64,000 bases of DNA from Parcubacteria group bacterium. GTDB taxonomy: Bacteria; Patescibacteriota; Minisyncoccia; Moranbacterales; JAKLHP01. Every line of letters begins with the position of its first letter. Within the stretch, counting starts at the first letter, position 1. Below are positions 11,532-38,355 of this stretch, piece after piece. The DNA is taken from positions 14,255 through 78,254 of the forward strand of contig JBBABD010000001.1 in the NCBI GenBank assembly GCA_041657845.1, written 5' to 3'. Made by a program: the position numbers and the translations under genes. Below the pieces are notes generated by a model, which was not told the DNA's origin, searched no databases, and saw only the letters and a program-made list of their open reading frames with translations.

Positions 11532-12269
11532 ATGAATAGTGAAAAAATATCTGTCGTCATCCCGTGTTTCAACGAGGAAAAAAACATCCAAAGCAATATC
11601 AAAAAAATATTCAAATACCTCGAGGGAAATTTCGAAAATTTCGAAATAATAGCGGTAAATGACGGAAGCACCGATAAAACCATAGAGGAACTGAAAAATT
11701 TGCAAAACGAAATTCCGCTTGCCATAATGGACAATTACGAAAACGAAGGCAAGGGAAAAGTAGTATGCGACGGGATACTCAAAAGCAACAATAATATTGT
11801 GATGTTTTTAGATGCCGATTTGGCCATTCCCATTGAAGAGCTGGAAAAATTTATTGTCGAAATTAACAAGGGATATGACATAGCGATTGCTTCACGCTTT
11901 GTTCCTGGAGGAAAAGTGATCCAAAAAGTTCTCTGGTACCGCATAATAATGGAAAAAGCTTTCAGAATCATTCGAACGATAATAATCAATAATTATAAGG
12001 TCCGAGATACTCAGTGCGGCTTTAAAGTATTCAGAAGAGATGCGGCTATGAAAATTTTTCCGCTTATGACTATCAAGCGCTTTGCTTTTGATTCGGAAAT
12101 CATATTTCTAGCCGGAAAATATAAATTTAAAATAAAGGAGCTTCCAATAACCCTTCAGAATCCGATCAGAAGCCATGTCAGAATATTTCGCGATCCTTTT
12201 AATATGCTTTGCGATCTTTTCAAGATAAGGATTAATGATGCAAAAAGAAAATATAAATTAAAAAAATAA
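11532..12269 (+). CDS. GT2 polyprenyl-phosphate glycosyltransferase (soluble DPM1/GtrB-like).
   Basis: It carries 'VVIPCFNEEKNI...IIAVNDGSTDKT' and 'FLDADL' (DxD) motifs. Confidence 0.75.
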   Translation: MNSEKISVVIPCFNEEKNIQSNIKKIFKYLEGNFENFEIIAVNDGSTDKTIEELKNLQNEIPLAIMDNYENEGKGKVVCDGILKSNNNIVMFLDADLAIPIEELEKFIVEINKGYDIAIASRFVPGGKVIQKVLWYRIIMEKAFRIIRTIIINNYKVRDTQCGFKVFRRDAAMKIFPLMTIKRFAFDSEIIFLAGKYKFKIKELPITLQNPIRSHVRIFRDPFNMLCDLFKIRINDAKRKYKLKK

Positions 12270-14036
12270 ATGTTTTCTTTAGAAAAAATTAAAGAAAAAA
12301 AATGGGAATTAATCTTCGTTTTGTCCCTGATATTTTTGGGGATTTTTTTGCGTACTTTCCATTTTTCCAAATGGCTCCACTTCGAAATCGACCAGTCTTA
12401 TGATTATTTGATGGTTTCTCCCGCAGTAGAAAAAGGGATTGGAAATCTTCCGCTTCTAGGACCGACTGCCGGCGGCGGAAGAGCGCTCCGGCTCGGTCCG
12501 GCTTTCTATTATATGGAATATTTGAGCGCCAAAGTTTTCGGAAATAACCCGACCGGGCATGCCATGCTCGTTCTGATCCTTTCTATTTTTTCTCTTCCAA
12601 TATTTTATTTATTTTCCAGAAGATACTTTTCCAAAAACATTTCTATCGGACTTCTGGCAATTTTTTCCACTTCGGTTTATATGGTTCTCTATTCCCGCTT
12701 TTCTTGGAGTCCGAACGTGCTTCCGTTTTTAACGCTTCTGACTTTTTACGCCTTGCTTCAAAGCGTCAGCGAGAAAGAAAAAAACAAAGACCGATGGTTT
12801 CTATTTTTCGCTTTTTTAATCGGAGTTTCGACTCAGATTCATTTCAATTCATTTTTCATTATCCCGGCAGTAGCAATTATATTTTTACTGATTAAACGCC
12901 CTAAATTCAAATTGAAAACTTGGGGCTTGGCTATCGCAATATTTCTGTTCTTGTATTCTCCAGTGATTGTTAACGAAATAAAAACTGGCGGACAAGATAT
13001 CGCTTTTTTTCAAGAAAAAATATCTGGGGAATCAAGCGATGAAACAACCCAAGATCCAGGAAAGGATGACAAAAAATCCGGAGAAAAACTTTTTCAAAAT
13101 TTCCGATATCACGCTTATGAATATTTTTTGATTATTAGCGGAAATGACACAATTAACGGCAACCGGCCCAAGGGATATGATTTGGGACTCACTTGCAAAA
13201 CTTGCAGCGACAAACTGCCCTGGAGAACATCCGGATTGATATTGTTCCTCTTTGGAACAATATTGCTTGCTTGCAAACTAACAAAAGAAAAAGATAGTGA
13301 AAGAAAAAATTTCTTGCTGATATCAGCTCTTTGGCTTGCGGCTTCATTTCTTTATTTTTTCGCCATAACTTACGACGGACTTTATATTTATCCACGATTT
13401 TTCCTGGTCGTTGCGCCTCTGCCTTTTATTCTTCTCGGACTCATATTTGAAAGCCTTGGCGCTGATAAAAACAGAATAAGCCTTCTGGCTTTTGCGGCTG
13501 CGATATTATTTTTGTCCTTTGCAAACACGCAAAAATTAAAAGATGATTTCAGCCAGCTAAAAAATGCTCCCATCCAAGACAAGAAAGTGGAAAAAGAAGA
13601 TGTTTTCCCTAATAATTATCGCGTCACGCAGGAGCAGCAGATTCTTATCACGGATTATATCGCATCCGAATTCAAACAAAATAGTTATCCTGTTTACATA
13701 AAAACCATTCATGAATATGAACCGGCATTTTGGTATTATTTGGGACAGAAGGGAATTTATTATTACGGAAAAATGAAACCCGAGACAGTTTATAAACAGG
13801 GAAATTATTTCTTGGTTCTCTATTCCTCCGACAGCAACAAGGAAATAAAAGAATATGGGGACACTTTCAATATTGCCGAAGAAAAAGAATTCGGCGTCCT
13901 TACTGTTTTTCAGTTAAATCCGAAACCGGCATCTATCACCGGCGAAAGACAAAGCGATTCGAAAAGAGAAACACCCGTTCAAGCGCAACAAATTTCCAAG
14001 CTTCTAACCTGGAAAAAATTATTTTCAAAGCAATAA
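12270..14036 (+). CDS. GT-C-fold membrane glycosyltransferase (GT39/PMT-ArnT-like), paralog 1.
   Basis: It has 12 or more TM helices. The first-loop signature is 'FLRTFHFSKWLHFEIDQSYD...LPLLGPTAGGG..LRLGPAFYY'. A C-terminal soluble domain follows. Confidence 0.6.
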   Translation: MFSLEKIKEKKWELIFVLSLIFLGIFLRTFHFSKWLHFEIDQSYDYLMVSPAVEKGIGNLPLLGPTAGGGRALRLGPAFYYMEYLSAKVFGNNPTGHAMLVLILSIFSLPIFYLFSRRYFSKNISIGLLAIFSTSVYMVLYSRFSWSPNVLPFLTLLTFYALLQSVSEKEKNKDRWFLFFAFLIGVSTQIHFNSFFIIPAVAIIFLLIKRPKFKLKTWGLAIAIFLFLYSPVIVNEIKTGGQDIAFFQEKISGESSDETTQDPGKDDKKSGEKLFQNFRYHAYEYFLIISGNDTINGNRPKGYDLGLTCKTCSDKLPWRTSGLILFLFGTILLACKLTKEKDSERKNFLLISALWLAASFLYFFAITYDGLYIYPRFFLVVAPLPFILLGLIFESLGADKNRISLLAFAAAILFLSFANTQKLKDDFSQLKNAPIQDKKVEKEDVFPNNYRVTQEQQILITDYIASEFKQNSYPVYIKTIHEYEPAFWYYLGQKGIYYYGKMKPETVYKQGNYFLVLYSSDSNKEIKEYGDTFNIAEEKEFGVLTVFQLNPKPASITGERQSDSKRETPVQAQQISKLLTWKKLFSKQ

Positions 14037-14050
14037 ACTGTCTTGAATCG

Positions 14051-15589
14051 CTATTTCTGATTTCCCCACCGATAAACCAGTACATCTCCCCTCACCTGAG
14101 GATTGCTGACTTTTGAAAAGTTTTTTTCGACATAATCGACAGCTTCACTGGAAATATAAGTTTCGTCATTGGTGGAAATAATAAACCATCCGCTTGGATT
14201 TTGACTGGCAATGTCCTGGATCTCGGCAACTGATAATTTTTCCTTGGAAAGTTCTCCTCCAAAATCAAAAACTTTTACTTTCGCTCCGCTCCAATAATAG
14301 TTTCGAAAATTTCTGGTTATCAGCGCATCTCCATCTTTTTTGTATTTTTTGAAATAAGTGAAAATTTTTCGATAATTGGGGTTGCTGGACTGGGATGTTT
14401 GGTTATAAGTATTGTCGCTGGTTTCAAAAAAGTAAGCATAATTAGGAAGAATCAAAAGTGAAATAATAATGGTCGTGAGATAGGCTTTCTTTCCGTAATT
14501 TTTCAAGTTTTCTTTGAAAAATTCAGCGGCAAAATATATTCCCGAGGCAATAAGGATTATTCCGAAAGATTTTATGAAAAAGATATATTGATTTCCGACA
14601 TTTCTTCCCCACAAAAAAATCGCGGAAAAAAGAACAACAAAGAAAGACATTGCCAGAAAACTTCCTTCTTTTGACATTTTTTGCTTTTTGGAAATAAAAT
14701 ATATTCCCAAAATAATAAATATGAAAGCTAGGATTCCGTTGGTGTAATCAGAAAGTGAAATTCTTGCGTATTCGAAGTGGCTGGTAAAGAAAGTCAATCC
14801 GGCTGTAAACGAAACTACTGTTTTGGGAATTGCAATAATAGCTCCAATAATCCCTAAAATGCTTAGCCCGAAAATTACCGAATATTTGTTCAGGTGCGAC
14901 TTGTTTTTGTTCCAATTCAAAACAGTCCAAAAAAGCAGGTAAAATCCGACTGCAAAAACGATATTGGCCGTGAGCTGGTGGGTCGCTAGGCTCAAAATTC
15001 CCACAGCAAGAGCGGGAATTAGGTATAGTGGGTTAATATCCCATTTTTCACTAATCTTCTTCAGAAAACCGATTTTGCCCTTATAATTGCTCTCCAGGAA
15101 ACGAAATAAAAGCCAAGAGAGAGCGAGATAAACCGGCAAAAACATTGCGTACATCCGAAGTTTCCTATCAAACTCAATTCCGGAAGTACTGATAGCGAAA
15201 AGAAAAGCGCCAATTAGGCCTATCATCTTCTTTTTGGTAAAATCGGTTGCCACAAAATAAATTAGAGCTATTGTTAAGATTCCCCATAAAACGCTTATTG
15301 TTCGCGCCGTACTTTCCGTTGGAGGGAGAAAATTAAAAAGCTCGGCCACCTGCCATTTATATACTCCAGCGCGCTCATCTCTAGCTTGAAAAACGTTATC
15401 GGCATTCACTTTTTCAAAATTAAAATCCCAATTTTGCCAAATACCGGTTTTGAAATAAGCATAGGAAGAATTTATGTCCAAAAATTCATCTGCCACGAAA
15501 GAATTATTTCCCAACTTATAGAATCGGAGAAACGCTCCGAGCAGAATTATAATTATCAGCGCTGTGTAAATATTTTTTCTAGAAAACAT
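14051..15589 (-). CDS. GT-C-fold membrane glycosyltransferase (ArnT/GT83-GT39-like).
   Basis: The N-terminal TM is followed by 'FLRFYKLGNNSFVADEFLD' (the DE motif of lipid-carrier-dependent glycosyltransferases). It is polytopic with a C-terminal soluble domain. Confidence 0.6.
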   Translation of the reverse strand: MFSRKNIYTALIIIILLGAFLRFYKLGNNSFVADEFLDINSSYAYFKTGIWQNWDFNFEKVNADNVFQARDERAGVYKWQVAELFNFLPPTESTARTISVLWGILTIALIYFVATDFTKKKMIGLIGAFLFAISTSGIEFDRKLRMYAMFLPVYLALSWLLFRFLESNYKGKIGFLKKISEKWDINPLYLIPALAVGILSLATHQLTANIVFAVGFYLLFWTVLNWNKNKSHLNKYSVIFGLSILGIIGAIIAIPKTVVSFTAGLTFFTSHFEYARISLSDYTNGILAFIFIILGIYFISKKQKMSKEGSFLAMSFFVVLFSAIFLWGRNVGNQYIFFIKSFGIILIASGIYFAAEFFKENLKNYGKKAYLTTIIISLLILPNYAYFFETSDNTYNQTSQSSNPNYRKIFTYFKKYKKDGDALITRNFRNYYWSGAKVKVFDFGGELSKEKLSVAEIQDIASQNPSGWFIISTNDETYISSEAVDYVEKNFSKVSNPQVRGDVLVYRWGNQK

Positions 15590-15740
15590 ATGAGCAAATT
15601 TACAATTTTCAATTTACAATTTTCAAACAATTTTCAATTTCCCAATTAATTAATTTTCAAACATTTGGAAATTTAGTCATTGTTTCGCCAGCCGGCGAAT
15701 TCATTGTAAATTGATCATTGTTCATTGAAAATTATAAAGA
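15590..15740. promoter_or_regulatory. AT-rich intergenic region with short tandem repeats between two minus-strand GT-C genes; probable promoter region.
   Basis: Tandem units 'tttacaattttcaa'/'acaattttcaa'/'ttaattttcaaaca' and 'cattgtaaattg'/'cattgttcattg' are visible. Confidence 0.25.
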
Positions 15741-17519
15741 TTATTCTTCTTCCTCATCTTCACTTCCTGTGCTGTCGAATATTTCCTGCCAAGTATAGCG
15801 TTTTGGAACGCCTGCAGCGCTTTTGGATCCGCCAGAGTCTTCGAATATTTCTTCTTCCGCATTTATCGCTTCCGGCTTGGGAGCAAGCTGAATTACCATC
15901 AAAGTTCCGAACTGTTTTTTGTTTACATAATCGTAGGAGATAGAATAATCTTCCAAATGGCCTTCCAAATTGGAATCGGTTGGATAAACCAGAAAATAAT
16001 TTCCATTTCTATAGACAGTATGGCCGTTAACCGCGTCCCTGAAATCGCTTTCCGGAATATCTCTCTGGCTCAGATCAAAAAGCAAAGACCTTCGATAAAA
16101 AGAACTGCTGTTGAGATATACTGGATATTTATTTTTTTGATAAAAACTTTCAATATAATTCGTTATCATATACTGCTGTTCCATTGTCACTCGCTGTCTT
16201 TCCTTCAAAATTCTGTCAGCGGAAACTTTTACCGTTTTATAGGGAGCATTTTTGAGTTCAGTAAATCTTAAATATGTCCTGTATAAGCTTGACGCAGAAA
16301 ATCCCAATATAACAATTAATGCAACTGCGACAGCGATTCTTTGGGGAAAAATTTTCCCGATAAAATCTAATGTGAATCCCAAAAATATGAAAGGCAAAGC
16401 AGAAACCAGAAGCCAGAAGCGGGGAGAAATATCAAATGCTAAAGGCGTGAAAAGTCCAAATACGGCAATAAACCAGAGAGAAATCAGAACAATAAAGTCT
16501 TTTTTTCTTAAGTCCTTTTCAAAAACTAAGTTCTTAAGCATCAGCAAAAGACCCGAGGAAAATAATATAGCTGCCACTATTCCATATGGAAGTTCTTTTT
16601 TACATCCTTGGTCGCATAGAATATTCAGATTGGGATTCCGAAGAACGCGAGGGAGTTCGGAATTCTGAGAGCTGAGAATGAGAAAATGTCCGACAGAATT
16701 TTCGCTGTAATTCTTGACTATTTTCGCAAGAAGGCTTTTTTCGCTTTTTCCCTCCGTTTTTCCTGAAACAACTTCCTTAAATTCTTTGAAATTATCTCCT
16801 CCGGTTTTTATTTCATTCAAAATCACCGGGAAATTCATAAGCAGTATAATACCAATCGCTCCGGTCCAATAAGCCCACTTTATTTTCGGCCTTTTGATGA
16901 TCAGAAACGCCGCCGTGATGACCGGAAAAGAAACATAAGCCAAAAAATGAAGCTGGGTGGCGACTGATATGAAAAAAGCCGCCGCCAAAAGCCACTTTCC
17001 TTTGTTCTTTTCTTCCCTATCGACTGCTCTAAGCAATGAATAGATTGCAAGAATAGTGAATAATGGAAGCGGATTTGGATTCCAGCTGAAACGGGAATAC
17101 ATTACTAGAAATAGCGAGGTTGAAAACAAAAGAAGCAGGCCGATGGAAGTCCATTTATTAAAATACCTTCTGACTAAAATATAGAAAGCGGGAATAGCCA
17201 AAATTCCGAATATCATTATTATGGTTGCTATCCCAGAAGGAGTATTTCCAAAAACTAGTGAGCTTAAATATTTGAAGTAATAAAAAACCGGTCCAAGCCT
17301 TAAAAACGATCCAGCCGCTTTCGGTCCCAAAAGAGGCAACGCTCCCGGCCCTTCTTTGATTGCCAAGTCGATTACTTTGGCATCGCGCGACTGATCCAAC
17401 TCAAAATGAAGCCAATCGGAAAAATGATAGAAACGCAGAAACGCGCCTAGCAAAAGTACGACCAAAAAAACGATATAAAAGTACCTTTTCTTGAAAGAAT
17501 TGAAAGCTTTATTTTTCAT
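15741..17519 (-). CDS. GT-C-fold membrane glycosyltransferase (GT39-like), paralog 2.
   Basis: It has the signature 'FLRFYHFSDWLHFELDQSRD...LPLLGPKAAGSFLRLGPVFYY' and an acidic C-terminal tail 'SEDEEEE'. Confidence 0.6.
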   Translation of the reverse strand: MKNKAFNSFKKRYFYIVFLVVLLLGAFLRFYHFSDWLHFELDQSRDAKVIDLAIKEGPGALPLLGPKAAGSFLRLGPVFYYFKYLSSLVFGNTPSGIATIIMIFGILAIPAFYILVRRYFNKWTSIGLLLLFSTSLFLVMYSRFSWNPNPLPLFTILAIYSLLRAVDREEKNKGKWLLAAAFFISVATQLHFLAYVSFPVITAAFLIIKRPKIKWAYWTGAIGIILLMNFPVILNEIKTGGDNFKEFKEVVSGKTEGKSEKSLLAKIVKNYSENSVGHFLILSSQNSELPRVLRNPNLNILCDQGCKKELPYGIVAAILFSSGLLLMLKNLVFEKDLRKKDFIVLISLWFIAVFGLFTPLAFDISPRFWLLVSALPFIFLGFTLDFIGKIFPQRIAVAVALIVILGFSASSLYRTYLRFTELKNAPYKTVKVSADRILKERQRVTMEQQYMITNYIESFYQKNKYPVYLNSSSFYRRSLLFDLSQRDIPESDFRDAVNGHTVYRNGNYFLVYPTDSNLEGHLEDYSISYDYVNKKQFGTLMVIQLAPKPEAINAEEEIFEDSGGSKSAAGVPKRYTWQEIFDSTGSEDEEEE

Positions 17520-17605
17520 AAATTTGCCTGTATAATTGTTTTGTAGGCTATTTTAAATATTAGGCTATTTTTAACATTTTAGCAATAACCAAATATATCA
17601 AAAAA

Positions 17606-19957
17606 ATGAACTATTCAAAAATTAAAAAAATTCTCAATCTGGAAAATTCCTTGCTTCTTTTCATTTCGATTGTTTCAGCCATAAATACTTTCTTATATGT
17701 TTATTTTAAGCTTCATAAAGCCAACCTTTTCGACTCAATCGGCGATGGAAAAATTGGTTTCATTTATTTTTTCATTATTATTTCTTCTCTGGCCGTTTTG
17801 GCTTATGTCTTTAGGAATCCGGCTGGAACTGCCTATACAGTCAAAAAGTTTCTTCTGACTTTCCTGCCTATGGAATCGATTTTGATTTATGGATATCTGT
17901 TTAATAAAATCGGCTATGACAAAACGATTTTCAATTATACATTGAGACCCTTCATAGGAATTTATCTTGCATTTGCCGGTTTTTATTTTCTTTTTAAATA
18001 TAAAAAATACAAAAAAATAAAGGATTTTTTCAAAGATTTCAGGGAAGAAAAAAATGAAGAAATTGCCGTTTCGCCAAAAGACATTTCTTTCCGGGGAAAA
18101 ATTATTTTCTGGTTTAAAAAAAGAGGGATTCTGGCGACATTAATAATCCTTTCTGTAATAGCCTTGAATTTGGGATTTGGAAGCTATCACCTAGCCAAAT
18201 TTGCCGCTGTTGATGAACCGCTTTGGACGCATGATCGGATTCCCAAATTTTGGACCAATGTGCTGGATGGAGAATTCAATAAAACAATGGTCAGTGACAA
18301 GCCGGGAATAACCGTGGCCATAATTTCAGGCGCTGCTATGAATTGGACAAACCCGACTTATTACAAAAGTTCGAGCTGGGACGGAAATGCTCTGGAGGAA
18401 TATTTAGGGCTAGAGAATCTTAATTTTAATCTCAGGTTTCCCATCCTTTTCTTCAATTGCCTGATGCTTTTGGTCTTTTATTTTTTCATCAAAAAATTAT
18501 TAGGAAAAACTGTTGCGCTTATTTCTTTTATTTTGATCGGGCTTTCTCCTTTGCTTCTGGGAATTTCCACCATCGTCAATCCGGACAGTCTTCTTTGGAT
18601 TTTCGCTCCCCTTTCTTTAATCGCTTATCTTGATTATCTCAAAGAGCACAGGAATAAATATTTGTACTGGACAGGAATATTTTTGGGTCTGGCCGTTCTG
18701 ACAAAATATGTGGCTAACATTCTCTATGTTTTTTTCTTTGGAATGATTTTTCTGGAATATATCGTAAATAAAGTAAAATATGAGAAAACGAGCATTGCCG
18801 AATATTTTAAAAAAACTTTTGCCGATTATTTTGCGATAGTTTTTTTCTCTCTTCTGACTTTTTCCCTACTTCTTCCAGCTGCTTGGGTTGATGTTAACAG
18901 GGTTTTGGAAGGAACTATTCTTTCCAAAGCTTTCACTTCAATCTGGCCATTATTTCTTTGCATTATCGGGCTTGTTCTGGCTGACATATTTATATTCAAA
19001 AATAAAATAATCGCTCCCGTTCTTGATTTTCTTTCTAAATATAAATCATTTTTTGTTATCGCCATCAATTTGATATTTGCCATCCTGACAATAGCAACCA
19101 TTGCTAACACTTATTCTGGAATGAGGTTATACGATTTGGAATCCATTTTGGCCTCACCCAAATCTTCCAAAAGTTTCGGAGGATTTTTGGGACTTATGCT
19201 GGCTAATTTTTATTCGCTGATTTTCGGCCTCACTCCTCTAGCTTTTCTGGCTCTGCTTTTTTCTACTATAACCAACATCTTTCCCAAGAAAAAAAATGCT
19301 AAGGAAACTGCAACTTGGTTCACGTACATCATTCTTTTCATTATTTTTTATTATTTAGCTTCTACCGCCGAAGGAGTAAGCGCTACTGTCAGATATCAAA
19401 TACTCCTCTATCCCCTAGCGATGATTCTTTCCGCTATCGGAATTTATCAATTTGTAAATATCGAAAAGATTAAAAAACATCTAGTTCTCGGTTTTGTTTA
19501 TCTGGGAATTTCAATCATTAGCCTGTACAACCTTAATTCAATTCGACCTTTTTATTTCAGCTATGCGTCCGACCTCTTGCCCAATCAATATGTTTTAAAT
19601 CTCAAAGATATGGGGGATGGAAGCTATGAAGCAGCTGATTATCTCAATAAATTGCCTAATGCCCAAGAATTAACCGTTTGGACTGACAAAAGAGGCGTCT
19701 GTTCTTTTTTTACGGGAACTTGCAAAAGCGGATTTGATTCGAAAACTTTGAATGAAAATATCGACTATTTCGTGGTTTCATCTGGACGAGAATCAAGAAC
19801 TGGGAAAATGACAGCCGGAAGAGCGCAAAACGGAGAAAAGGCAATCATACAATTAGGACAGTTATATAATCAAAAAAACTACGACTACAAATTGGAAATC
19901 GGAGGAAGGCCCGACAATTTTGTTAAAATTGTATCAACAAAGAATATAAAGGAATAA
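17606..19957 (+). CDS. Large GT-C-like membrane glycosyltransferase (783 aa; 'phospholipid-carrier-dependent glycosyltransferase'-like).
   Basis: It has more than 14 TM helices and 'AKFAAVDEPLWTHDRI' (DEP motif in the first extracytoplasmic loop). A C-terminal ~190-aa soluble domain follows. Confidence 0.5.
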   Translation: MNYSKIKKILNLENSLLLFISIVSAINTFLYVYFKLHKANLFDSIGDGKIGFIYFFIIISSLAVLAYVFRNPAGTAYTVKKFLLTFLPMESILIYGYLFNKIGYDKTIFNYTLRPFIGIYLAFAGFYFLFKYKKYKKIKDFFKDFREEKNEEIAVSPKDISFRGKIIFWFKKRGILATLIILSVIALNLGFGSYHLAKFAAVDEPLWTHDRIPKFWTNVLDGEFNKTMVSDKPGITVAIISGAAMNWTNPTYYKSSSWDGNALEEYLGLENLNFNLRFPILFFNCLMLLVFYFFIKKLLGKTVALISFILIGLSPLLLGISTIVNPDSLLWIFAPLSLIAYLDYLKEHRNKYLYWTGIFLGLAVLTKYVANILYVFFFGMIFLEYIVNKVKYEKTSIAEYFKKTFADYFAIVFFSLLTFSLLLPAAWVDVNRVLEGTILSKAFTSIWPLFLCIIGLVLADIFIFKNKIIAPVLDFLSKYKSFFVIAINLIFAILTIATIANTYSGMRLYDLESILASPKSSKSFGGFLGLMLANFYSLIFGLTPLAFLALLFSTITNIFPKKKNAKETATWFTYIILFIIFYYLASTAEGVSATVRYQILLYPLAMILSAIGIYQFVNIEKIKKHLVLGFVYLGISIISLYNLNSIRPFYFSYASDLLPNQYVLNLKDMGDGSYEAADYLNKLPNAQELTVWTDKRGVCSFFTGTCKSGFDSKTLNENIDYFVVSSGRESRTGKMTAGRAQNGEKAIIQLGQLYNQKNYDYKLEIGGRPDNFVKIVSTKNIKE

Positions 19958-19978
19958 ATAATAATTCATAACATTTTT

Positions 19979-21613
19979 ATGCCAAATCTCAAAGACTCGA
20001 TCAAAAAAAACAAAAAAACTATAATCATATTGGCTATTATACTTTTCGCAGGGATATTTTTGCGAACCTATAAATTTCACGATTGGCTGAGATTTAGCAA
20101 GGATCAATCCAGAGACGCGCGGATAATCAGTAATGCTGCTTTGCGAGGAGATCACCTCCCATATCTGGGACCGAACGCCGGAACGACAAAATTCCGATTG
20201 GGACCAATCTACTATTATTTTTCCTACGCTTCAGAAAAAATATTCGGAGTCTACCCTGACAAAATGGCCTACCCCAGTGTTTTCTTTTCAATTCTTTCTA
20301 TTCCTCTTCTGTATTTTTTCCTCAAGGAATTTTTCAACAGGAAAATATCCCTAGCAATGACGGCGCTAATGAGTGTTTCCTATTTTATGATAATAAATTC
20401 CCGCTTTTCTTCCAATCCAAACCTCATCACTTTTTTCGCCCTCCTCTATTTTTATGGATTACTTAAAATACTAAATGATCCAAAAGGAAAATACGCTCTT
20501 TTTTGGAGCGCGCTTGCCGGAATAGGAATAGGGGTTAGCATTCAACTTCATACTACTCTTTTAATAACAATGCCAATAATGACAATCTGTATTTTTGCTT
20601 ACCTGTTTTTTAAAGAAAAATCCATAAAATCTTCGGCCATTTGGAAAAGTTTGCTGGCTGTTATTTTATTTTCCTTAATCCTCAACACTAGCCAGATATA
20701 TTCTGAAATCGATTCGCACGGAAGCAACACGAAACTTTTCTTCAAAGGATTTGCTAAGAGTTCCGAAAAGGACAGCAACCTCGCAAAAAGTGTTTTTCTT
20801 ATCGCATCCTGCCAGATCCAAGCTAATACTCATATAATTTCTTCCTTTCAGGATGACATAAATTGCGAAAATGTTTTCAGATCACCCGACCCAAAAACGG
20901 AAAACCAAGTTTTATACTATTTCGGAATGGCTATAACTATTCTCTTTTCTCTGATTGGATATTTCCTTCTTTGGAAGCGTTTCAGAAGAGAAAAGGATGC
21001 AAAAAAGAAAAACTTTCTCGGATTAGTTATCCTGTTTAATTTTCTTTCATTTATAATATTGATTCCGATTGCCAACATCATATTCGTCGGATATTTCATC
21101 AATCTATTTTTTATTCCTCTTGTTCTTCTGGGTATTTTTATTGAAGAATCGCAAAATAAATTCGGAAAAATTGGAGTTAATATTGCAATATTGGCAGTTA
21201 CTCTTCTTATTGCTTCTTCTCTGGTGAGAGATGGATTTGCAGCTGATAGATACGCAAAGGGACTGGAAAATAATTCCAAAAACAGTACCCTAGGAGAAGT
21301 AGAACTGATGCGCGATTATATATTCTCTAGTTTGAACGGTTATAATCATTTTTATTTTTCCGGACACGGCAACGCTCTTACCAGTCGATTTTTCGCTCCC
21401 ATTGAATATTTTTCCAAAGAAGCCGGCATAAAAATAGAAGGAACCTCTCTGGATTCGTCCCGCGATGATAGAAAAATCGACAAGAACGCTCCGATATTTT
21501 ACATTGAAGAAAATAGCGTTGGAAACAACAAACTGGGACAAATAAGAGAAGGACACGTTATAATTTCCAGCCAAAAATTCTCCAGCCAGACTATTTTAAT
21601 TCTAAAACACTAA
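19979..21613 (+). CDS. GT-C-fold membrane glycosyltransferase (GT39-like), paralog 3.
   Basis: Its signature is 'FLRTYKFHDWLRFSKDQSRD...LPYLGPNAGTTKFRLGPIYYY'. Confidence 0.6.
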   Translation: MPNLKDSIKKNKKTIIILAIILFAGIFLRTYKFHDWLRFSKDQSRDARIISNAALRGDHLPYLGPNAGTTKFRLGPIYYYFSYASEKIFGVYPDKMAYPSVFFSILSIPLLYFFLKEFFNRKISLAMTALMSVSYFMIINSRFSSNPNLITFFALLYFYGLLKILNDPKGKYALFWSALAGIGIGVSIQLHTTLLITMPIMTICIFAYLFFKEKSIKSSAIWKSLLAVILFSLILNTSQIYSEIDSHGSNTKLFFKGFAKSSEKDSNLAKSVFLIASCQIQANTHIISSFQDDINCENVFRSPDPKTENQVLYYFGMAITILFSLIGYFLLWKRFRREKDAKKKNFLGLVILFNFLSFIILIPIANIIFVGYFINLFFIPLVLLGIFIEESQNKFGKIGVNIAILAVTLLIASSLVRDGFAADRYAKGLENNSKNSTLGEVELMRDYIFSSLNGYNHFYFSGHGNALTSRFFAPIEYFSKEAGIKIEGTSLDSSRDDRKIDKNAPIFYIEENSVGNNKLGQIREGHVIISSQKFSSQTILILKH

Positions 21614-21622
21614 AAAATCCTT

Positions 21623-22402
21623 ATGATTAAAAATATATTTGAAAAAATTATTACTTTTTTCGGGAAAAATAAAAAAACAATTATCCTTGTCATTTTGCTA
21701 ATAGTTGCCGGAGGATTATATTATGAATTTATTTATCTCGCCAAGCCGAATATTGAAAACAAAAAATCAATAGAAGCCGCCCTTGTCGCCGATATTCACG
21801 TTGGTCCAGAAAAAAAGGGGCATAGTGAAAATGCCATTGTCCACCCCAAAGAATACAAAAATAATTTGAAACCGCTTATTGATTCAAAACCAGATTTGAT
21901 TATTACCTTGGGAGACAATGTAAATGACAATAAAAAATGCCACCCGTACGCCGATGATTTAAAAAAATATCTTTCTAAATTCAATGTACTTTGGGGCAAG
22001 GGAAATCATGACAAAGATTGTTTTCCTGTTTTTAGCGAACAAGCCTATTATTATCATGATTATAGCAATGCTGGATGGAGAATTGTTATGCTGGATCACG
22101 ACATTGATATTGACCCTGATGAACTCAATTGGCTCCGCGAAACATTGAAAACCGACAAGAAAGTTTTAATTGTCACTCATGTTCCCTTTTTCTCTCCCAG
22201 CCGAGATGAAAACGCCCTGCTTCCGCAATATACTGATGCGGAAAAAGTCATTTCCGAAAGCGGAAATGTGAAATATGTTTTTATGGGACATTTGCACAGC
22301 CGCCTTTGGGACAAAGAATATAACGGTGTGCATTATTACATCATTCCTTCCGTCTCCGGAGACGAATATCCAAAGTATTTTATGAAACTAACCTTAAATT
22401 AA
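21623..22402 (+). CDS. Membrane-anchored metallophosphoesterase (calcineurin-like).
   Basis: It has an N-terminal TM helix and the motifs 'ADIHVG', 'LGDNVND', 'GKGNHD', 'VTHVPFF' and 'GHLH'. Confidence 0.75.
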   Translation: MIKNIFEKIITFFGKNKKTIILVILLIVAGGLYYEFIYLAKPNIENKKSIEAALVADIHVGPEKKGHSENAIVHPKEYKNNLKPLIDSKPDLIITLGDNVNDNKKCHPYADDLKKYLSKFNVLWGKGNHDKDCFPVFSEQAYYYHDYSNAGWRIVMLDHDIDIDPDELNWLRETLKTDKKVLIVTHVPFFSPSRDENALLPQYTDAEKVISESGNVKYVFMGHLHSRLWDKEYNGVHYYIIPSVSGDEYPKYFMKLTLN

Positions 22403-22407
22403 AAACA

Positions 22408-24075
22408 ATGGAATATTTGAAAAAAATTATTAAAAACGAATACGCAATCTTAGCCATTGTAATACTTGTCGCCATATTTTTAAGATCGTATCAGCACAAA
22501 AATTTTCTTGGTTTTCATCTGGATCAGTCAAGAGACGCCATAATCGTCGGCGATTTTATAGATGATTTTTCAAAGATTCCTCTTCTCGGACCCCACACCA
22601 GCGGCAGTAATCTGCAATTGGGACCGGCTTATTATTATCTTCAAGCCATTCCCGTCTTTTTTTTGGGAAAAAGCCCGGAAAATTTTGCTCTAGCTGACTG
22701 GTTTTTTTCTATTCTCTTTGTTTGGCTCTTGTATTTTTTCCTTCGCCTGTATTTTTCCAAAAATATTTCCCTGTTACTTTCGGCTATGGCCGCCGTTTCG
22801 CTTTTCTTGGTGATTTACGGACGCTTTGCTTGGAATCCCAATTCGCTTCCTTTTCTCACGCTACTGGCGCTTTTCGGACTCCTCAAAGCCGACTGGAAAA
22901 ATACTGTCCGCCCTGAATGGTTTTATCTGGGCATATTCGGAGCTGCTGTCGCCACTCAGCTCCATTATGTCTATTTTTTCATGGCGCCTATTATCTTCAT
23001 TGCTTATATCGCCGTCTGGAAGCCGCGTTTGAAAATAAAGCATTATTTAGCAGGGATTCTTATCATCTTAGCAGTCTATTTCCCTATGGTTATCAGCGAA
23101 ATAAAAACCGGCGGCGCGAATACCCAGTTATTAATAAAAAATACTTTCGAAAGAGGCCTCGAGGGCGGAGACAACAAACACAACGTGATCGACAAAGCCT
23201 TCTATGCTTACCAAAAATTGCAGATGACCAACTGGCAAATAATCACGTCCGACGAACACGGAAGTTCTATGCAGCTTTCCAAAAAATTTATCCCTGTCTG
23301 CAAGAAGGAATGCCGGAATGATTTTCCCTTTTTCATTCTTCAAACTTTTCTTTTTGTTTTCGGTCTTTGGGCCGGAATTTCTTCTTACCGCCGCGAACAG
23401 AATCGGGACCGGAAAAAATATATATTTTCGACCTGGCTATGGCTTGGATCAATGTTTATAATTTCCATTCCAATAATATACAATATGAGTCCGCATTATT
23501 ATTTGGCGGCTGCGGCTCCTTGCTTTGTGTTTTTAGGAATATCGCTTCAAAAAACAAGCAACTGGGGGAAATATGGAAAAATAATTATACTTTTCCTGTC
23601 TGCCGCCATCATTCTTTTTAATTTAAGAAACACTTTGATCTATTTGAGAGAACACGCAGCCAGCGCCAAAGGAGAAGTGGAAAATACCATTGGACGAGAG
23701 CTTTATAATGATAAGAAAATCACATTGGAACAATTAGAAGAAACAGTTAAATACATCAAAGAACACAGAAATCCAAATACAACCGTGAGAATTGCAGCTG
23801 ATAATTCTTACGCCCGAGCCGTATTTTATCTTCTGAAGCATCAAGAAAATATACCCGCCTGCTATACCAAAACCAGCGCTTTTCATCCATCAGGAAGTCT
23901 GGATTATTTTTTGGTTTACCGCTTGGGCGTTAATCAGGAAATGCCACAAGATCTGGAAGGGCAATTTTCTATTCGCAGCCAAGAAAAAATCGGCAATCTG
24001 CTGATAATAGATGCCGAGGCGAAAAATCCAGGAGGGAAGCCGGGAAAAGATGAGAAATGCTTTGACTATTTGTAA
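22408..24075 (+). CDS. GT-C-fold membrane glycosyltransferase (GT39-like), paralog 4.
   Basis: Its signature is 'FLRSYQHKNFLGFHLDQSRD...IPLLGPHTSGSNLQLGPAYYY'. Confidence 0.6.
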   Translation: MEYLKKIIKNEYAILAIVILVAIFLRSYQHKNFLGFHLDQSRDAIIVGDFIDDFSKIPLLGPHTSGSNLQLGPAYYYLQAIPVFFLGKSPENFALADWFFSILFVWLLYFFLRLYFSKNISLLLSAMAAVSLFLVIYGRFAWNPNSLPFLTLLALFGLLKADWKNTVRPEWFYLGIFGAAVATQLHYVYFFMAPIIFIAYIAVWKPRLKIKHYLAGILIILAVYFPMVISEIKTGGANTQLLIKNTFERGLEGGDNKHNVIDKAFYAYQKLQMTNWQIITSDEHGSSMQLSKKFIPVCKKECRNDFPFFILQTFLFVFGLWAGISSYRREQNRDRKKYIFSTWLWLGSMFIISIPIIYNMSPHYYLAAAAPCFVFLGISLQKTSNWGKYGKIIILFLSAAIILFNLRNTLIYLREHAASAKGEVENTIGRELYNDKKITLEQLEETVKYIKEHRNPNTTVRIAADNSYARAVFYLLKHQENIPACYTKTSAFHPSGSLDYFLVYRLGVNQEMPQDLEGQFSIRSQEKIGNLLIIDAEAKNPGGKPGKDEKCFDYL

Positions 24076-24092
24076 TCAAGTTTGCCTAAAGG

Positions 24093-24929
24093 CTATTCCT
24101 GCCAAAACCAGCGATAAGAAAGAAGATCGAATGTCCTATAGTTTCCTTCCATTCCTTCAAGAAGAAAAGCCGGCATTCCGACATATTCGATGCCGTTTTT
24201 TTCTTTTTGCCACGGAAGATGCAGATGCCCGGAAAAAACATATTTAACATTTTTCTTTTCAAATTCCTCAATCAGAGGCCTGTAAACAGGATGGATTCTT
24301 TCCGCATTATCCCAATCCCAAACCGGATGATGCATTGCCACAATTATATTTTTTTCGGTATCGGAAACCTCTCTGAACCAATCCAATTGCTTCTTGGTTA
24401 TTCCTTCTTTGTAAGGATCATTTTCTGATTTATCATTCGTATCCAGAACGATGATTCTCCAATTGTCGTAATCTTCGTAGAAATAGGTTCCATTTATTCC
24501 TAAATAATTTATAACATCTTCTTTGTCGTGATTTCCCCTGGCCCATAAAACCTCCATTCCGGATTGATCGATGATATCTTTCATCACTTGGGCATATTTA
24601 AGCGATGGGGTATTAAACTGATCGCCAAGCGAAACAAGAAGACTAACGCCTTCCAACTTCATTTCATTTAGCGCTTCGGGAAGAAATTCCACAAAATCAG
24701 CTGGATATATCACATTTCCGGGCGTATTTTGCTCCATTGATCTTCTGTCTTGGCTGCCGGCATGTATATCAGACACAAAAGAAACTCTAAAAACTTTTTT
24801 TTCGAGAATTTCAGGACAGTCTCCGTCCAAAAGCTTTCTAGAAAAAATAAATCCCAAAATAAAAAAAGTAAGAAAACAGAAAAAAAGCAAGACAAAAACA
24901 AATATTTTTATTTTCATTGATTTTTCCAT
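24093..24929 (-). CDS. Membrane-anchored metallophosphoesterase, paralog of 21623..22402.
   Basis: It has an N-terminal TM helix and the motifs 'VSDIHAG', 'LGDQFN', 'RGNHDKED', 'AMHHPVW' and 'SGHLH'. Confidence 0.75.
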   Translation of the reverse strand: MEKSMKIKIFVFVLLFFCFLTFFILGFIFSRKLLDGDCPEILEKKVFRVSFVSDIHAGSQDRRSMEQNTPGNVIYPADFVEFLPEALNEMKLEGVSLLVSLGDQFNTPSLKYAQVMKDIIDQSGMEVLWARGNHDKEDVINYLGINGTYFYEDYDNWRIIVLDTNDKSENDPYKEGITKKQLDWFREVSDTEKNIIVAMHHPVWDWDNAERIHPVYRPLIEEFEKKNVKYVFSGHLHLPWQKEKNGIEYVGMPAFLLEGMEGNYRTFDLLSYRWFWQE

Positions 24930-24953: not shown

Positions 24954-25901
24954 CTATTTTTTAATCCTGATCCATTTGCCGAAGTCGCGTTTCCCTTTTA
25001 GATAAATCGGAAAGGCTGTGATATTGGCCAATCCTTGAAGAAAACGATTAAGAATCGCTACCATAACTACCGCTGAAATATTAATCCCTAGCGGAACAAA
25101 AAAAGCCGCATAAGCCCATTCCTTGAGCCCTACTCCCGCCGGTATGGAGGAAACGATGCTTATGAGAAAAATGACCGAAAAATAATCCCAAATATTTATG
25201 TTGATCCCCAGACTCCAGAACAAAACCAGATTAGCTAGTCCTACTCCGATTAAATTAAAAAGAAAAGAATAGGCCAAAGATTCAAAGAAAATTTTCTTGT
25301 TTTTTCCAAAACTAGACAGCTCGCGCAAAAAATTTACCGCTTTATCAGGAAGATATCCGAGAATTTTCTTGGCAAAAGCGGTTTTTCTGGTTTTAAAAAA
25401 AATAGTCAGCCCGATCAGCAATCCCAAAATAATCAAATTAGCCACAGTGATAAAATAAATTCCTGAAGCTTTTTGAAAATTAAGAATAAAGAAAATCGGC
25501 GACATCAGCATAAGAGCCAAGAGTCCGGTAAAACGATCCGCTACCACTGTCGAAGAAGCCTCGGAATATTTTTTTTCTTTTTTCCCGATTTGATATGCCC
25601 GAAAGATATCCCCTCCAATTGTTGAAGGAACAAAATTATTAATAAACGCTCCAGTCAGGTATAACTTGAAAAAATTTAAGAAAGAATCTTTCAGGCCCTT
25701 GTGAAGACAAAGTTTTTGCCACTTTCTGGTAGAAATAAAAAGTCCCAGGAAAATAACTGCCAGATAGGCTATGACCTGCCAAATTTCAATTTTTCTGAGG
25801 TATTGCCATGATTCGCCCCAATCGACCTTAACAATAAGAAATCCAATAAAAACAGCACTTAGCAGAATTTTTAAAATAAGTTTTATGGTTTTATTTTTCA
25901 C
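24954..25901 (-). CDS. Lysylphosphatidylglycerol-synthase-TM-like / 'flippase-like domain' membrane protein.
   Basis: 315 aa with ~8 TM helices and a 'GGDIFRAYQ' block. Proteins of this kind commonly sit next to GT2/GT4 genes. Confidence 0.5.
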   Translation of the reverse strand: MKNKTIKLILKILLSAVFIGFLIVKVDWGESWQYLRKIEIWQVIAYLAVIFLGLFISTRKWQKLCLHKGLKDSFLNFFKLYLTGAFINNFVPSTIGGDIFRAYQIGKKEKKYSEASSTVVADRFTGLLALMLMSPIFFILNFQKASGIYFITVANLIILGLLIGLTIFFKTRKTAFAKKILGYLPDKAVNFLRELSSFGKNKKIFFESLAYSFLFNLIGVGLANLVLFWSLGININIWDYFSVIFLISIVSSIPAGVGLKEWAYAAFFVPLGINISAVVMVAILNRFLQGLANITAFPIYLKGKRDFGKWIRIKK

Positions 25902-37677: not shown

Positions 37678-38355
37678 ATGAAAATTTTTATCGTTATTCC
37701 CGCTTTTAATGAAGGAACTGTGATTCAGGATGTTATAAGAGAAATAAAAGAAGAAGGATATGAAAATATTATCATCGTTGACGATGGAAGCAAGGATAAT
37801 ACCTATTCAAAAGCCAAAGAAATAAAAGGGATTACTGCCCTGAGACACAAAATCAATCGAGGAAAAGGAGCGGCTACCAAAACCGGCATTGAAGCGGCAA
37901 AATTGCTTGGAGCTGATATTATTGTTACAATGGATGGAGATGGACAGCATGACCCCAAAGACATCAAAAAACTCGTAGAACCGATAATCAAAAATGAATT
38001 CGACGTTGTTTTGGGCACAAGACTTAAAAATCCCGAGGGTATGCCCTTGTACAAGAGATTGCATAATTGGATCGCAAATCTGGTAACTTGGTACTTGTTT
38101 GGCATCTGGGTAACCGACAGTCAGTCGGGTTTTCGCGTTTATTCGCGAAAATCCGCAGATTCAATCAACACAAGATATGATCGGTATGAATATGACAGCG
38201 AGGTAATCCGAGAAATTTATTTGCGAAAACTCAGCTTCACGGAGATCCCAATCACTGTCAGATATACTGAATATTCTATGGGAAAGGAACACGGCCAAGG
38301 AATTATAAACGGATTCAAAACGTTATACAAAATGATTTGGAGGCTAATGAATTAG
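37678..38355 (+). CDS. GT2 polyprenyl-phosphate glycosyltransferase (soluble DPM1-like).
   Basis: It has 'FIVIPAFNEGTVI...IIIVDDGSKDNT' and 'VTMDGDGQHDP'. Confidence 0.75.
   Translation: MKIFIVIPAFNEGTVIQDVIREIKEEGYENIIIVDDGSKDNTYSKAKEIKGITALRHKINRGKGAATKTGIEAAKLLGADIIVTMDGDGQHDPKDIKKLVEPIIKNEFDVVLGTRLKNPEGMPLYKRLHNWIANLVTWYLFGIWVTDSQSGFRVYSRKSADSINTRYDRYEYDSEVIREIYLRKLSFTEIPITVRYTEYSMGKEHGQGIINGFKTLYKMIWRLMN

Follow-up and report, generated by a model that had tools for sequence, protein, structure and literature searches.

A 64,000-nucleotide stretch of DNA (hereafter, the window) from a groundwater bacterium with a tiny genome (Parcubacteria/Moranbacteria; Moraniibacteriota, candidate phyla radiation) carries six genes for polytopic membrane proteins, each named "glycosyltransferase family 39 protein" in GenBank, and raises the question of what these proteins transfer and to which acceptor. 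A first-pass annotation had described them as one expanded family of GT-C glycosyltransferases on alternating strands, four of them tandem-derived paralogs, and had suggested that they may form a combinatorial extracytoplasmic glycosylation system. All six open reading frames were recovered, at 12270..14036 (+), 14051..15589 (-), 15741..17519 (-), 17606..19957 (+), 19979..21613 (+) and 22408..24075 (+); the strand order is + - - + + +, and there is therefore no alternation.

The six array proteins are GT-C-fold glycosyltransferases, a point on which Pfam PMT_2 scores, two AlphaFold models and profile-profile links agree. The PMT_2 gathering cut-off (PF13231, 26.1 bits) is exceeded by five of the six (12270, 50.6 bits; 15741, 55.3 bits; 17606, 50.9 bits; 19979, 36.3 bits; 22408, 31.3 bits), and the PMT model PF02366 by 17606 (39.4 bits) and marginally by 15741. 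Protein 14051 falls just under the PMT_2 cut-off (21.7 bits), despite which its AlphaFold2 model (pLDDT 89.1, pTM 0.87), Foldseek matches and hhalign profile match to family B (see below) assign it to the GT-C enzymes, which account for every one of its best 31 Foldseek matches (AglB, STT3, ArnT and PglB among them). A second model (pLDDT 87.3, pTM 0.88) has TM1 followed by two short helices (42-56 and 78-90) and TM2, a layout equivalent to that of the JM1/JM2 helices of ArnT (PMC7801869). For both models the top PDB matches are exclusively GT-C proteins, namely ArnT, AglB/STT3, PglB, Pmt1/2/4, ALG9/12, AftA/B/D and PimE, and HMMER gave zero similarity between the array proteins and the sequences of solved GT-C enzymes.

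Judged by sequence, the array comprises three subfamilies and not a single paralog family: A (14051), B (12270, 15741, 19979 and 22408) and C (17606, of type C1). The four B proteins share 27-41% identity over their full length (40% between 12270 and 15741), and 14051 and 17606 only 16-20% with them; by hhalign, A and B are linked at 95.6% and B and C at 85.5% probability, with flippase controls below 1%. Within B, 15741 represents the core clade B1, and 12270, 19979 and 22408 the accessory clades B2, B3 and B4. A recent tandem origin is contradicted by the orthologues of these ancient lineages in other species: the clade of 12270 includes those of loci L036 and L011 (52%), 19979 has orthologues in the same two loci (56-58%), and 22408 in L036 (72%). 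The divergence of the C-terminal domains did hold (15-39% identity, versus 34-51% in the N-terminal module), and the EL4 loop, too, is less conserved than the N-terminal module. Two lower-confidence GT-C candidates had also been proposed outside the array. One (57293..58726, +) is indeed a seventh GT-C-like protein (DUF2142 77.6 bits, PMT_2 49.2 bits; hhalign 95.7% to B and 94.9% to C); the other (4021..5952, +) is a DUF1616 polytopic membrane protein and conserved neighbour, at most a possible GT-C relative (DUF1616 32.3 bits only; about 14 hydrophobic segments; hhalign to B 24%), whose orthologues carry DUF1616 and DUF6541.

The N-terminal signature noticed earlier is present in all four B proteins, as DQSRDA...LPLLGP...LRLGPVFYY in 15741 (nt 17277-17396), as DQSYD...LPLLGP...LRLGPAFYY, with DQSYD and not DQSRD, in 12270 (nt 12390-12512), and at nt 20102-20218 in 19979 and nt 22522-22638 in 22408. 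It is the catalytic first extracytoplasmic loop, and its reading as a generic signal or transmembrane feature fails: DQSRDA aligns column by column with DETRYA of ArnT (DExRYA motif), at an hhalign probability of only 15%, and D42-Q43 is kept by all 41 relatives compared. Equally invariant, each in 41/41 relatives, are D34-E35 of family A (14051; invariant ADEFLD at nt 15476-15493) and D203-E204, W207 and R211 of family C (17606; VDEPLWTHDR at nt 18209-18238, in a protein extended by about 170 aa at its N-terminus). Family B has D-Q, without exception, where the ArnT motif has D-E. No counterpart to the YFEKP stretch of the ArnT motif appears in the loop alignment, and the array proteins contain no WWDxG oligosaccharyltransferase motif.

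The locus was compared with 82 related loci, 46 long ones among them serving for neighbour counts. The commonest array order is C2-C1-B-A, together with a MOP flippase, a flippase-like protein, a GT4 and a UDP-glucose dehydrogenase; family A is present in 57 and C1 in 60 of the 82 loci. In the window array C2 is missing, and three accessory B paralogs of old origin stand in its place. The 9891-type flippase adjoins the array in 38 of the 46 long loci, and the 24954-type flippase-like protein and the 25924-type GT4 are present in 35 and 36 of them, respectively. A four-gene GT-C array is the lineage norm, and the proposed expansion therefore amounts to six copies against a modal four. The kind of enzyme is ordinary and was previously annotated, and the arrangement is lineage-wide. 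We propose that the span forms the core of an envelope-glycan locus common to the Moraniibacteriota lineage, in which sugars would be loaded by GT2 enzymes, flipped, and transferred by the GT-C enzymes onto an envelope glycopolymer or lipoglycan; this reading, taken jointly with the mechanism and acceptor described below, has a probability of about 0.6.

At the cytoplasmic side, four GT2 enzymes would use nucleotide sugars to charge polyprenyl phosphate with single sugars; the earlier identification of these enzymes is confirmed by Pfam and full-length model matches. They resemble polyprenyl-phosphate-sugar synthases (ArnC, PpgS, AglJ), with none of the four reaching an NCBIfam equivalog cut-off. 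The soluble candidate synthase at 11532..12269 (+; Glycos_transf_2 100.3 bits; motifs DAD and DTQCGFK) has a stop codon abutting the start of 12270 and matches the PgfS, ArnC, Dol-P-hexose transferase and PpgS models weakly, though over the full length; its orthologues in L004 and L005 (71-75% identity) are located between A and the flippase. In the same two loci, the counterpart (86-87% identity) of the ArnC/PgfS-like candidate at 32349..33287 (-; ArnC 173 bits over the full length, PgfS 153 bits; C-terminal TM helices, segments at 235-291) adjoins the UDP-glucose dehydrogenase. The soluble PpgS-like GT2 at 37678..38355 (+; PpgS model 165 bits, full length; motifs DGD and DSQSGFR) has as its putative partner a small membrane protein at 38374..38718 (+), for which, of the earlier label "GtrA/DUF2304-like", the DUF2304 half stands (PF10066, 56.7 bits) and the GtrA half does not; this pair directly adjoins the array in L042, L057 and L062. 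The AglJ/PpgS-like GT2 at 1265..2215 (+; AglJ 115.7 bits, full length; PpgS 98.5 bits) has two C-terminal TM helices (segments at 242-291). Three GT2 genes, DUF2304 and an epimerase directly adjoin three GT-C genes in L057 and L062, and a near-complete form of this block occurs in L042 and L063. One of the sugars may be a uronic acid, as suggested by an adjacent UDP-glucose 6-dehydrogenase (27182..28489, -; three UDPG_MGDP_dh domains; TIGR03026 478 bits, over the cut-off; TuaD model 549 bits) and NAD-dependent sugar-nucleotide 4-epimerase/dehydratase (56300..57244, -; Epimerase 190.8 bits; best NCBIfam models TviC, 182.7, and GalE, 173.1, both under cut-off), the latter type lying beside GT2 genes and the array in L042, L057, L062 and L063.

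The lipid-linked sugars would then be flipped over the membrane, our guesses for this step being the MOP-superfamily (Wzx/MurJ/MATE-like) protein at 9891..11459 (+; Polysacc_synt 86.7, MurJ 46.7, MatE 44.8 bits) and the LPG_synthase_TM/TIGR00374 flippase-like protein at 24954..25901 (-; PF03706 124.8 bits; TIGR00374 79.7 bits against a cut-off of 43.2). Pfam supports as MOP/Wzx-type both flippases recognized earlier, 9891 and a second at 40815..42338 (+; Polysacc_synt_3 79.5, Polysacc_synt 78.9 bits), which belongs to a strain-specific glycan block and has no homologue among the 82 related loci; no GtrA-family flippase was detected within the window. At the outer face, each GT-C would transfer the sugar to the envelope acceptor by means of the invariant Asp with which its first outer loop opens, part of a D-E pair in A and C and of a D-Q pair in B. 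The core enzymes (A, B1, C1) would serve distinct steps or positions, and accessory B2-B4 would add variable decorations, two of them in cooperation with outer-face metallophosphoesterases. The three-component logic of GT2 synthase, flippase and GT-C is established (PMC11127046). The acceptor is most likely a cell-surface glycopolymer or lipoglycan, with a backbone from co-located GT4 enzymes such as the conserved neighbour at 25924..27105 (-; Glycos_transf_1 143.5 bits); no window feature separates glycan, protein and lipid acceptors.

A protein acceptor is possible, though doubtful. The GT-C enzymes would then move polyprenyl-phosphate sugars to Ser/Thr residues of proteins that are secreted or anchored in the membrane (S-layer, pilins, disordered tails), with paralogs serving different protein classes or adding successive sugars, on the model of Ppm1/Pmt of actinobacteria or PgfS/PgfM1 of streptococci. 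For monoderm bacteria, glycosylation of proteins by a GT2 with a GT-C is documented (PMC5856776; 10.1101/2024.05.05.592596), 17606 and C2 relatives exceed the cut-off of PF02366 (protein O-mannosyltransferase) with 39-42 bits, the D-E dyad of families A and C is typical of PMTs, and the PgfS match of 32349 is full length. However, Pfam reports no PMT_4TMC domain, PgfM1/2 are YfhO-type and form a separate GT-C family, the best structural matches of family B (ArnT and ALG12) do not act on proteins, and the GT4s, MOP flippases and sugar-nucleotide enzymes around the locus are of the polysaccharide-locus type. The acceptor proteins suggested earlier, 34981 and 60530, turned out to be an enzyme-like SpoIID protein and a lipase-like protein, neither markedly enriched in Ser/Thr/Pro.

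Modification of a lipid or glycolipid head group, with the paralogs decorating one membrane glycolipid at several positions, appears unlikely. Its models are ArnT (Ara4N on lipid A), Rhizobium RgtA-D (GalA; polyprenyl-phosphate donor from RgtE) and PimE, and it would fit the alignment of the loop motif with that of ArnT. It would also fit the gene order of close relatives, where UDP-glucose dehydrogenase adjoins an ArnC-like GT2, an arrangement that recalls the arn operon with its Ugd and ArnC steps as well as the RgtE/RgtA-D layout. Against this, the window has no homologue of ArnA, ArnB or ArnD, YFEKP is missing from the alignment, the large variable C-terminal domains suit polymer or protein acceptors equally well or better, and lipid A synthesis is not known from Moranbacteria-type bacteria.

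The new element of the envelope-glycan locus is the apparent pairing of accessory B enzymes with membrane-anchored metallophosphoesterases. Two such genes, absent from the first-pass annotation, lie adjacent to accessory B genes in the span, at 21623..22402 (+; Metallophos 45.2 bits) and 24093..24929 (-; Metallophos 56.0 bits), each with an N-terminal TM segment and intact motifs (DIH, GDN, GNHD and GHLH in 21623); an orthologue of 21623 (74%) occupies the same position in L036. Fusion of a metallophosphoesterase to a B-type GT-C occurs in L024, L026 and L075, and at least 27 protein clusters of relatives show it; the sister clade of 19979 (B3) is likewise fused to a Metallophos domain. The pairing is common without being universal: B3-like genes in L015, L016 and L066 have no detected metallophosphoesterase partner. 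The fusion would also suit cleavage of a diphosphate carrier, and with it the view that some paralogs are non-transferase GT-C-like helpers, flipping-associated like archaeal Agl23, or polymerase/ligase-type enzymes on diphosphate-linked oligosaccharides, the phosphoesterase recycling polyprenyl diphosphate. This is very improbable. The only NCBIfam hit common to most paralogs (5/6) is TIGR03663, 'flippase activity-associated protein Agl23', but at 20-34 bits it is far under the 126-bit cut-off; the best structural matches of family A are oligosaccharyltransferases, which use diphosphate-linked donors, but the WWDxG motif is missing and the invariant catalytic Asp is kept in all families. The carrier-lipid diphosphatases known from the outer face belong to the BacA and PAP2 types, none of them calcineurin-like.

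Among known systems, ArnT (GT83) shares with the array the GT-C fold, the succession of TM1, two juxtamembrane helices and TM2, a C-terminal outer domain and, in the alignment of 15% hhalign probability, the loop-1 pattern D-(E/Q)-x-R-x-A...G, and ranks first or second among the structural matches of the array models. It differs in sequence (about 11-12% identity in structure-based alignments, no HMMER match), in having Glu for the Gln of family B, in YFEKP, which the array lacks, and in its 13 TM helices versus about 11. The arn pathway (Ugd, ArnC, ArnE/F, ArnT) is matched by the ArnC-like GT2 and UDP-glucose dehydrogenase, but the window is without ArnA, ArnB and ArnD, and a lipid A acceptor cannot be presumed. 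GT39 PMTs (Pmt1/2/4; actinobacterial Pmt with Ppm1) have in common with the array PF02366 (above cut-off for 17606, marginal for 15741), the D-E dyad of families A and C and the GenBank label; the array has no PMT_4TMC or MIR domains and family B has D-Q, and the label is generic, with GT39-specific features not found in the array proteins. Three-component systems (GtrA/GtrB/Gtr*; the pentofuranose system with MATE flippase and GT136) likewise co-encode synthase, flippase and GT-C, and a MOP/MATE-type flippase can fill the GtrA role (PMC11127046). No GtrA-family protein was detected in the window; the three-component systems have one GT-C and one GT2 where the window has six to seven and four, and are serotype-converting add-ons whereas the core array is lineage-conserved.

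The mycobacterial sets (EmbA/B/C, AftA-D, Mpt, PimE; with PpgS, Rv3632 and Rv3779) have many GT-Cs that act one after another on a single polymer at the outside of the membrane, with polyprenyl-phosphate sugars, and AftA, AftB, AftD, EmbA and PimE are among the structural matches; the array is PMT_2-like and not GT53/85/87/89, the organism is unrelated, and no arabinose or DPA pathway genes are evident. The PpgS match of 37678 and the DUF2304 gene directly after it are comparable to the mycobacterial pairing of Rv3631 followed by Rv3632. In Rhizobium, RgtA-D are several ArnT-like GT-C paralogs that rely on one ArnC-like GT2 (RgtE) and a uronic-acid donor derived from UDP-glucuronate and act on LPS core and lipid A; the UDP-glucose dehydrogenase and 4-epimerase-like gene of the window resemble this arrangement.

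The window lies on a 91.6-kb contig from a metagenome-assembled genome of the Parcubacteria group, and its G+C content ranges from 28 to 40%. When all large ORFs were scanned with Pfam and NCBIfam, the bulk of the 64 kb proved to be a surface-glycan island, with seven GT4 and four GT2 genes, two MOP flippase genes, methyltransferase genes, one radical-SAM enzyme gene and two genes for UDP-glucose dehydrogenase, of which one is truncated at the window edge; no tRNA and no Rfam family was found in the window. The island is broken up at 33427-34668, 37222-37617, 47348-47767 and 52778-56212 by mobile or defence-type genes (a DUF4143 AAA ATPase, a PD-(D/E)XK nuclease, an IS200-like transposase, a Schlafen/AlbA_2-HTH protein, an AbiEi/AbiEii toxin-antitoxin pair and Fic). 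The region 38715-52498 is a low-G+C block (28-34%) containing GT4 genes, several methyltransferases, the second Wzx, an adenylate-forming ligase (47906), a kinase-like protein and the membrane proteins 50350 (584 aa) and 52082 (138 aa, approximately four TM segments). Except for the IS200-like transposase at 47348, with one match, its genes have no homologue in the 82 related loci compared, and the block is probably a strain-specific glycan cassette.

The six GT-C ORFs proposed in the first-pass annotation are all present, starting at 12270, 14051, 15741, 17606, 19979 and 22408 (genes are named by their start coordinate), with the strand order + - - + + + rather than in alternation. In GenBank (MFA5776848-MFA5776854) each product is named "glycosyltransferase family 39 protein"; the gene-level identity is already in the public annotation, and the basic classification is unchanged. 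BLAST and a neighbour-joining tree split the six proteins into three families: family A (14051, approximately 510 aa), family B (15741, 12270, 19979 and 22408, approximately 545-590 aa) and family C (17606), whose 783 aa include approximately 170 residues of N-terminal extension. The array had been described as one set of paralogs, which holds for the four signature-sharing ORFs that group as family B and not for all six. For 14051, two start codons are in public use, giving proteins of 512 aa (NCBI) and 481 aa (JGI); the longer form is supported by orthologues of 508-514 aa and by invariant N-terminal residues.

We put the probability that these proteins are GT-C enzymes at about 95%. With Pfam membership requiring that the whole protein score no lower than the gathering cut-off of 26.1 bits, PMT_2 (PF13231) was assigned to 12270, 15741, 17606, 19979 and 22408 (31.3-55.3 bits) and to 57293, a candidate outside the array (49.2 bits), while 14051 scored 21.7 bits, below the cut-off. 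AF2 models of 15741 (52 homologues) and 14051 (54 homologues) were confident, with pLDDT values of 87.3 and 89.1 and pTM values of 0.88 and 0.87, respectively. According to AF2 secondary structure and hydropathy, there are approximately 11 TM helices in family B and 10-11 in family A, and in the models of both families TM1 leads into a loop approximately 60 residues long that contains two short helices. The best 31 Foldseek matches of 14051 were all GT-C proteins, led by AglB, STT3, ArnT and PglB; transporters appeared only at TM-scores of approximately 0.1, and a transporter identity was rejected on that basis. Profile alignment with hhalign joined A to B at 95.6% over 348 columns, B to C at 85.5% and 57293 to B at 95.7%, compared with less than 1% for controls against a flippase family; the second candidate outside the array, the DUF1616 protein 4021, reached only 24% with family B. 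The putative assignment of family C draws on Pfam PMT and PMT_2 and on its alignment to B. HMMER searches with one single sequence and two family profiles found no similarity between the window GT-Cs and PDB chains, so their relation to solved GT-C enzymes is remote, the link consisting of Pfam evidence, of structural comparison and of a single weak hhalign alignment.

The N-terminal signature reported for 12270, 15741, 19979 and 22408 was found in all four. In the 15741 model it lies between TM1 (residues 2-30) and TM2 (residues 94-116), in a segment with short helices at 42-56 and 78-90, and because the N-terminus is rich in Lys/Arg, the loop is placed on the outside of the cell. Invariant residues were D42-Q43, R45 and D46 in 41 of 41 family B relatives, D34-E35 in all 41 family A relatives, and D203-E204, W207 and R211 in all 41 family C relatives. 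The D-Q pair is kept by all five B clades, and Arg45 is replaced by Tyr or Asp in clade B2. When family B was aligned by hhalign with ArnT of E. coli (NC_000913.3), D42-Q43-S44-R45-D46-A47 fell opposite D-E-T-R-Y-A and G57 opposite the Gly of the ArnT motif, in a weak alignment (E 0.0018, 15% probability); family A gave no hhalign match to ArnT. Given a dyad invariant in each family and, in family B, aligned with the D-E of ArnT, the shared signature is predicted to be the catalytic first extracytoplasmic loop and not a generic signal or TM feature. Family B has a second conserved motif, P-x-I-x-N-E-I-K-T-G-G, in the long loop following TM7 (residues 229-306 of 15741), and in the same loop a nearly invariant Cys pair, C302 and C306, which fits an extracytoplasmic site for it.

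The four family B paralogs share 27-41% identity over their full length. By region, identity is 36-51% for TM1 and loop 1, 34-50% for TM2-TM7, 20-34% for the long post-TM7 loop and 15-39% for the C-terminal domain, which, as had been proposed, is among the most diverged parts. This gradient fits a putative architecture in which a conserved donor module is combined with an acceptor module that varies. Recent tandem duplication was rejected: DNA repeats are at most 44 nt long, with 63-84% identity, and correspond to conserved peptide motifs. The three extra B paralogs each fall in a separate clade with orthologues elsewhere, which together with the lack of DNA-level repeats argues that the paralogs are old.

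Relatives of family B were found at 270 loci in a one-genome-per-species scan; the best 80 of these 270 were examined, together with two loci from an exact-protein look-up (L001 and L002), giving 82 loci in total. The lineage-named records among them are Moraniibacteriota, Parcubacteria or Patescibacteria. Many related contigs, including those of loci L003-L006, are titled 'uncultured Bdellovibrionales bacterium'; these titles look like placeholders or errors, since gene content and identity match Moraniibacteriota/Parcubacteria. The commonest gene order, found at 19 loci with many others on truncated contigs, is C2 (a further family C relative, approximately 620 aa), C1 (the 17606 type, approximately 760 aa), B and A. 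Four is thus already the modal GT-C count in the lineage, and the "expanded family" of the first-pass annotation stands only in that the window has six, lacking C2 and carrying three extra B paralogs. Among the 46 loci longer than 20 kb, B is accompanied by a MOP flippase in 38, thymidylate kinase in 37, family C and the GT4 25924 in 36 each, family A and the flippase-like protein 24954 in 35 each, and RtcB in 32. In the window, the RtcB RNA ligase and thymidylate kinase genes (7446-9559) lie within the glycan locus, flanked by GT4 and MOP flippase genes, and these are the same positions that RtcB keeps in 32 and thymidylate kinase in 37 of the 46.

One related locus (L036) shares the complete six-gene array, with identities of 52-74%, and another (L011) carries part of it. 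The central segment 17606-25901 is closest to L036 (C1 73%, the B paralog 19979 56%, phosphoesterase 74%, the B paralog 22408 72%), and the flanks 4021-17519 and 25924-33287 are closest to the loci L004/L005 at 63-87% (A, 15741, the GT2 11532, GT4, UDP-glucose dehydrogenase and the GT2 32349), a mosaic which suggests that the central cassette was exchanged or differentially lost. In L004 and L005, the closest relatives, UDP-glucose dehydrogenase directly adjoins the ArnC-like GT2; in the window an amino-acid-kinase-family protein, a GFO/IDH/MocA-type oxidoreductase and a radical-SAM/SPASM enzyme (28615-32252) lie between them.

The proposed co-encoding of polyprenyl-phosphate-sugar synthase-like GT2s with the GT-Cs is borne out by model matches and by their adjoining the array in relatives. 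The product of 32349 has C-terminal TM helices and matches ArnC over its full length (173 bits) as well as PgfS (153 bits); 37678 matches PpgS over its full length (165 bits) and is followed by a DUF2304 protein (38374, 56.7 bits), as in the known GT2 and DUF2304-type pairs PpgS/Rv3632 and GacI/GacJ; 1265 matches AglJ over its full length (116 bits) and also PpgS; and 11532 has weaker matches to the same model set. All four fall short of the equivalog cut-offs, and GtrA (PF04138) has no match in the window. In the related loci L057 and L062, genes for DUF2304, a PpgS-like GT2, a further GT2, an epimerase, an ArnC-like GT2, UDP-glucose dehydrogenase, GT4 and the flippase-like protein, then C, B and A, form one contiguous block, so that three candidate donor synthases adjoin three GT-C genes; L042 and L063 have a near-complete version. 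From the co-located GT2 genes, which are circumstantial evidence, the GT-C donors are quite probably lipid-monophosphate-linked sugars; a non-catalytic role, or one needing diphosphate-linked donors, appears very improbable. A uronic-acid donor is possible, although unproven, given 27182 (UDP-glucose 6-dehydrogenase) and 56300 (a TviC/GalE-like epimerase). Candidate flippases are 9891 (MOP), 24954 (TIGR00374, above cut-off) and the four-TM protein 52082.

Two genes within the array that the first-pass annotation left undescribed, 21623 and 24093, encode calcineurin-like metallophosphoesterases that are anchored in the membrane at the N-terminus and retain their catalytic motifs intact, as separate neighbours of family B genes (19979 followed by 21623, and 22408 with 24093). 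Such genes occur in 5 of 7 loci with at least three B paralogs versus 8 of 75 others (Fisher p = 8e-4, the loci not being independent). In a sister clade of 19979 the two are fused (L024:1926-4352, L026:3233-5728 and L075:3101-5680) into single proteins 808-859 aa long, in which an N-terminal PMT_2 domain and a Metallophos domain at residues of approximately 540-785 have no TM segment between them. A database search with the L024 protein retrieved at least 27 clusters (797-879 aa, 38-51% identity) having both domains. A 904-aa clade B2 protein in L018 and L021 (L021:4817-7531) also has metallophosphoesterase-like motifs. The fusion argues that the accessory B enzymes and the phosphoesterase would share a substrate at the outer face. 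More speculatively, and with rather low confidence, they may constitute an undescribed two-enzyme unit coupling phosphoester cleavage to surface glycosyl transfer, with cassettes exchanged between Moranbacteria lineages. The phosphoesterase might strip a teichoic-acid-like or lipoglycan acceptor of a phospho-substituent, or it might process a phosphorylated lipid-linked donor. If true, such exchange would vary the surface of host-dependent ultrasmall bacteria.

The best-supported reading is that the locus would be an enlarged form of the three-component logic of GT2 synthase, flippase and GT-C (PMC11127046). The acceptor we tentatively favor, at somewhat below even odds, is a glycopolymer or lipoglycan of the cell surface for whose synthesis the co-located GT4 and flippase genes would be responsible. 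Family C's PF02366 scores, the D-E dyads and the streptococcal precedent of Pgf and GtrB/PgtC2 speak for protein O-glycosylation; the proteins nominated as Ser/Thr/Pro-rich acceptors, 34981 and 60530, turned out to be a SpoIID-like protein and a lipase-like alpha/beta hydrolase (Ser+Thr+Pro 23% and 15.5%), and we consider a protein acceptor unlikely. Literature searches turned up no account of GT-C arrays for Moranbacteria, for Parcubacteria or for the candidate phyla radiation, and no functional literature on DUF1616; the conserved array, the family B D-Q dyad and the GT-C/metallophosphoesterase fusion are undescribed in the papers found, an absence that is not proof of novelty. To our knowledge, the envelope chemistry of uncultivated candidate phyla radiation bacteria is essentially unknown. 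These organisms have genomes of approximately 1 Mb, with many biosynthetic pathways missing. Nevertheless, the lineage of the window retains four to six GT-Cs and their donor synthases in one conserved locus, which suggests that a glycoconjugate important to the surface is put together outside the membrane. Strain-level surface variation has candidate determinants in the variable accessory cassettes, and matched GT2/GT-C pairs, the D-Q dyad variant and the GT-C fused to a metallophosphoesterase are targets for heterologous biochemistry.

Compared with known systems, family A finds its closest structural counterparts in the oligosaccharyltransferases AglB and STT3, yet neither WWD nor WxDxG occurs in any of the eight candidates, and an STT3/AglB/PglB-type identity was rejected for lack of the WWDxG motif of the C-terminal domain. 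Judged by PF02366, the C-terminal PMT_4TMC module and the D-E dyad, the proteins do not qualify as protein O-mannosyltransferases (GT39): PF02366 passes its cut-off in just two of them, 17606 (39.4) and, by a narrow margin, 15741 (24.3 versus 22.7), the PMT_4TMC module is matched by no protein, and family B has D-Q instead of D-E. Lipid modification of the ArnT or Rgt kind is a distinctly unlikely alternative, with Pfam scans of all window ORFs finding no homologue of ArnA, ArnB or ArnD (formyltransferase/decarboxylase, aminotransferase and deformylase). The loop-1 signature of ArnT (GT83) is DExRYA...GxW...YFEKP; family B lacks the W and YFEKP, yet carries D-Q-S-R-D-A...G at the right spacing.
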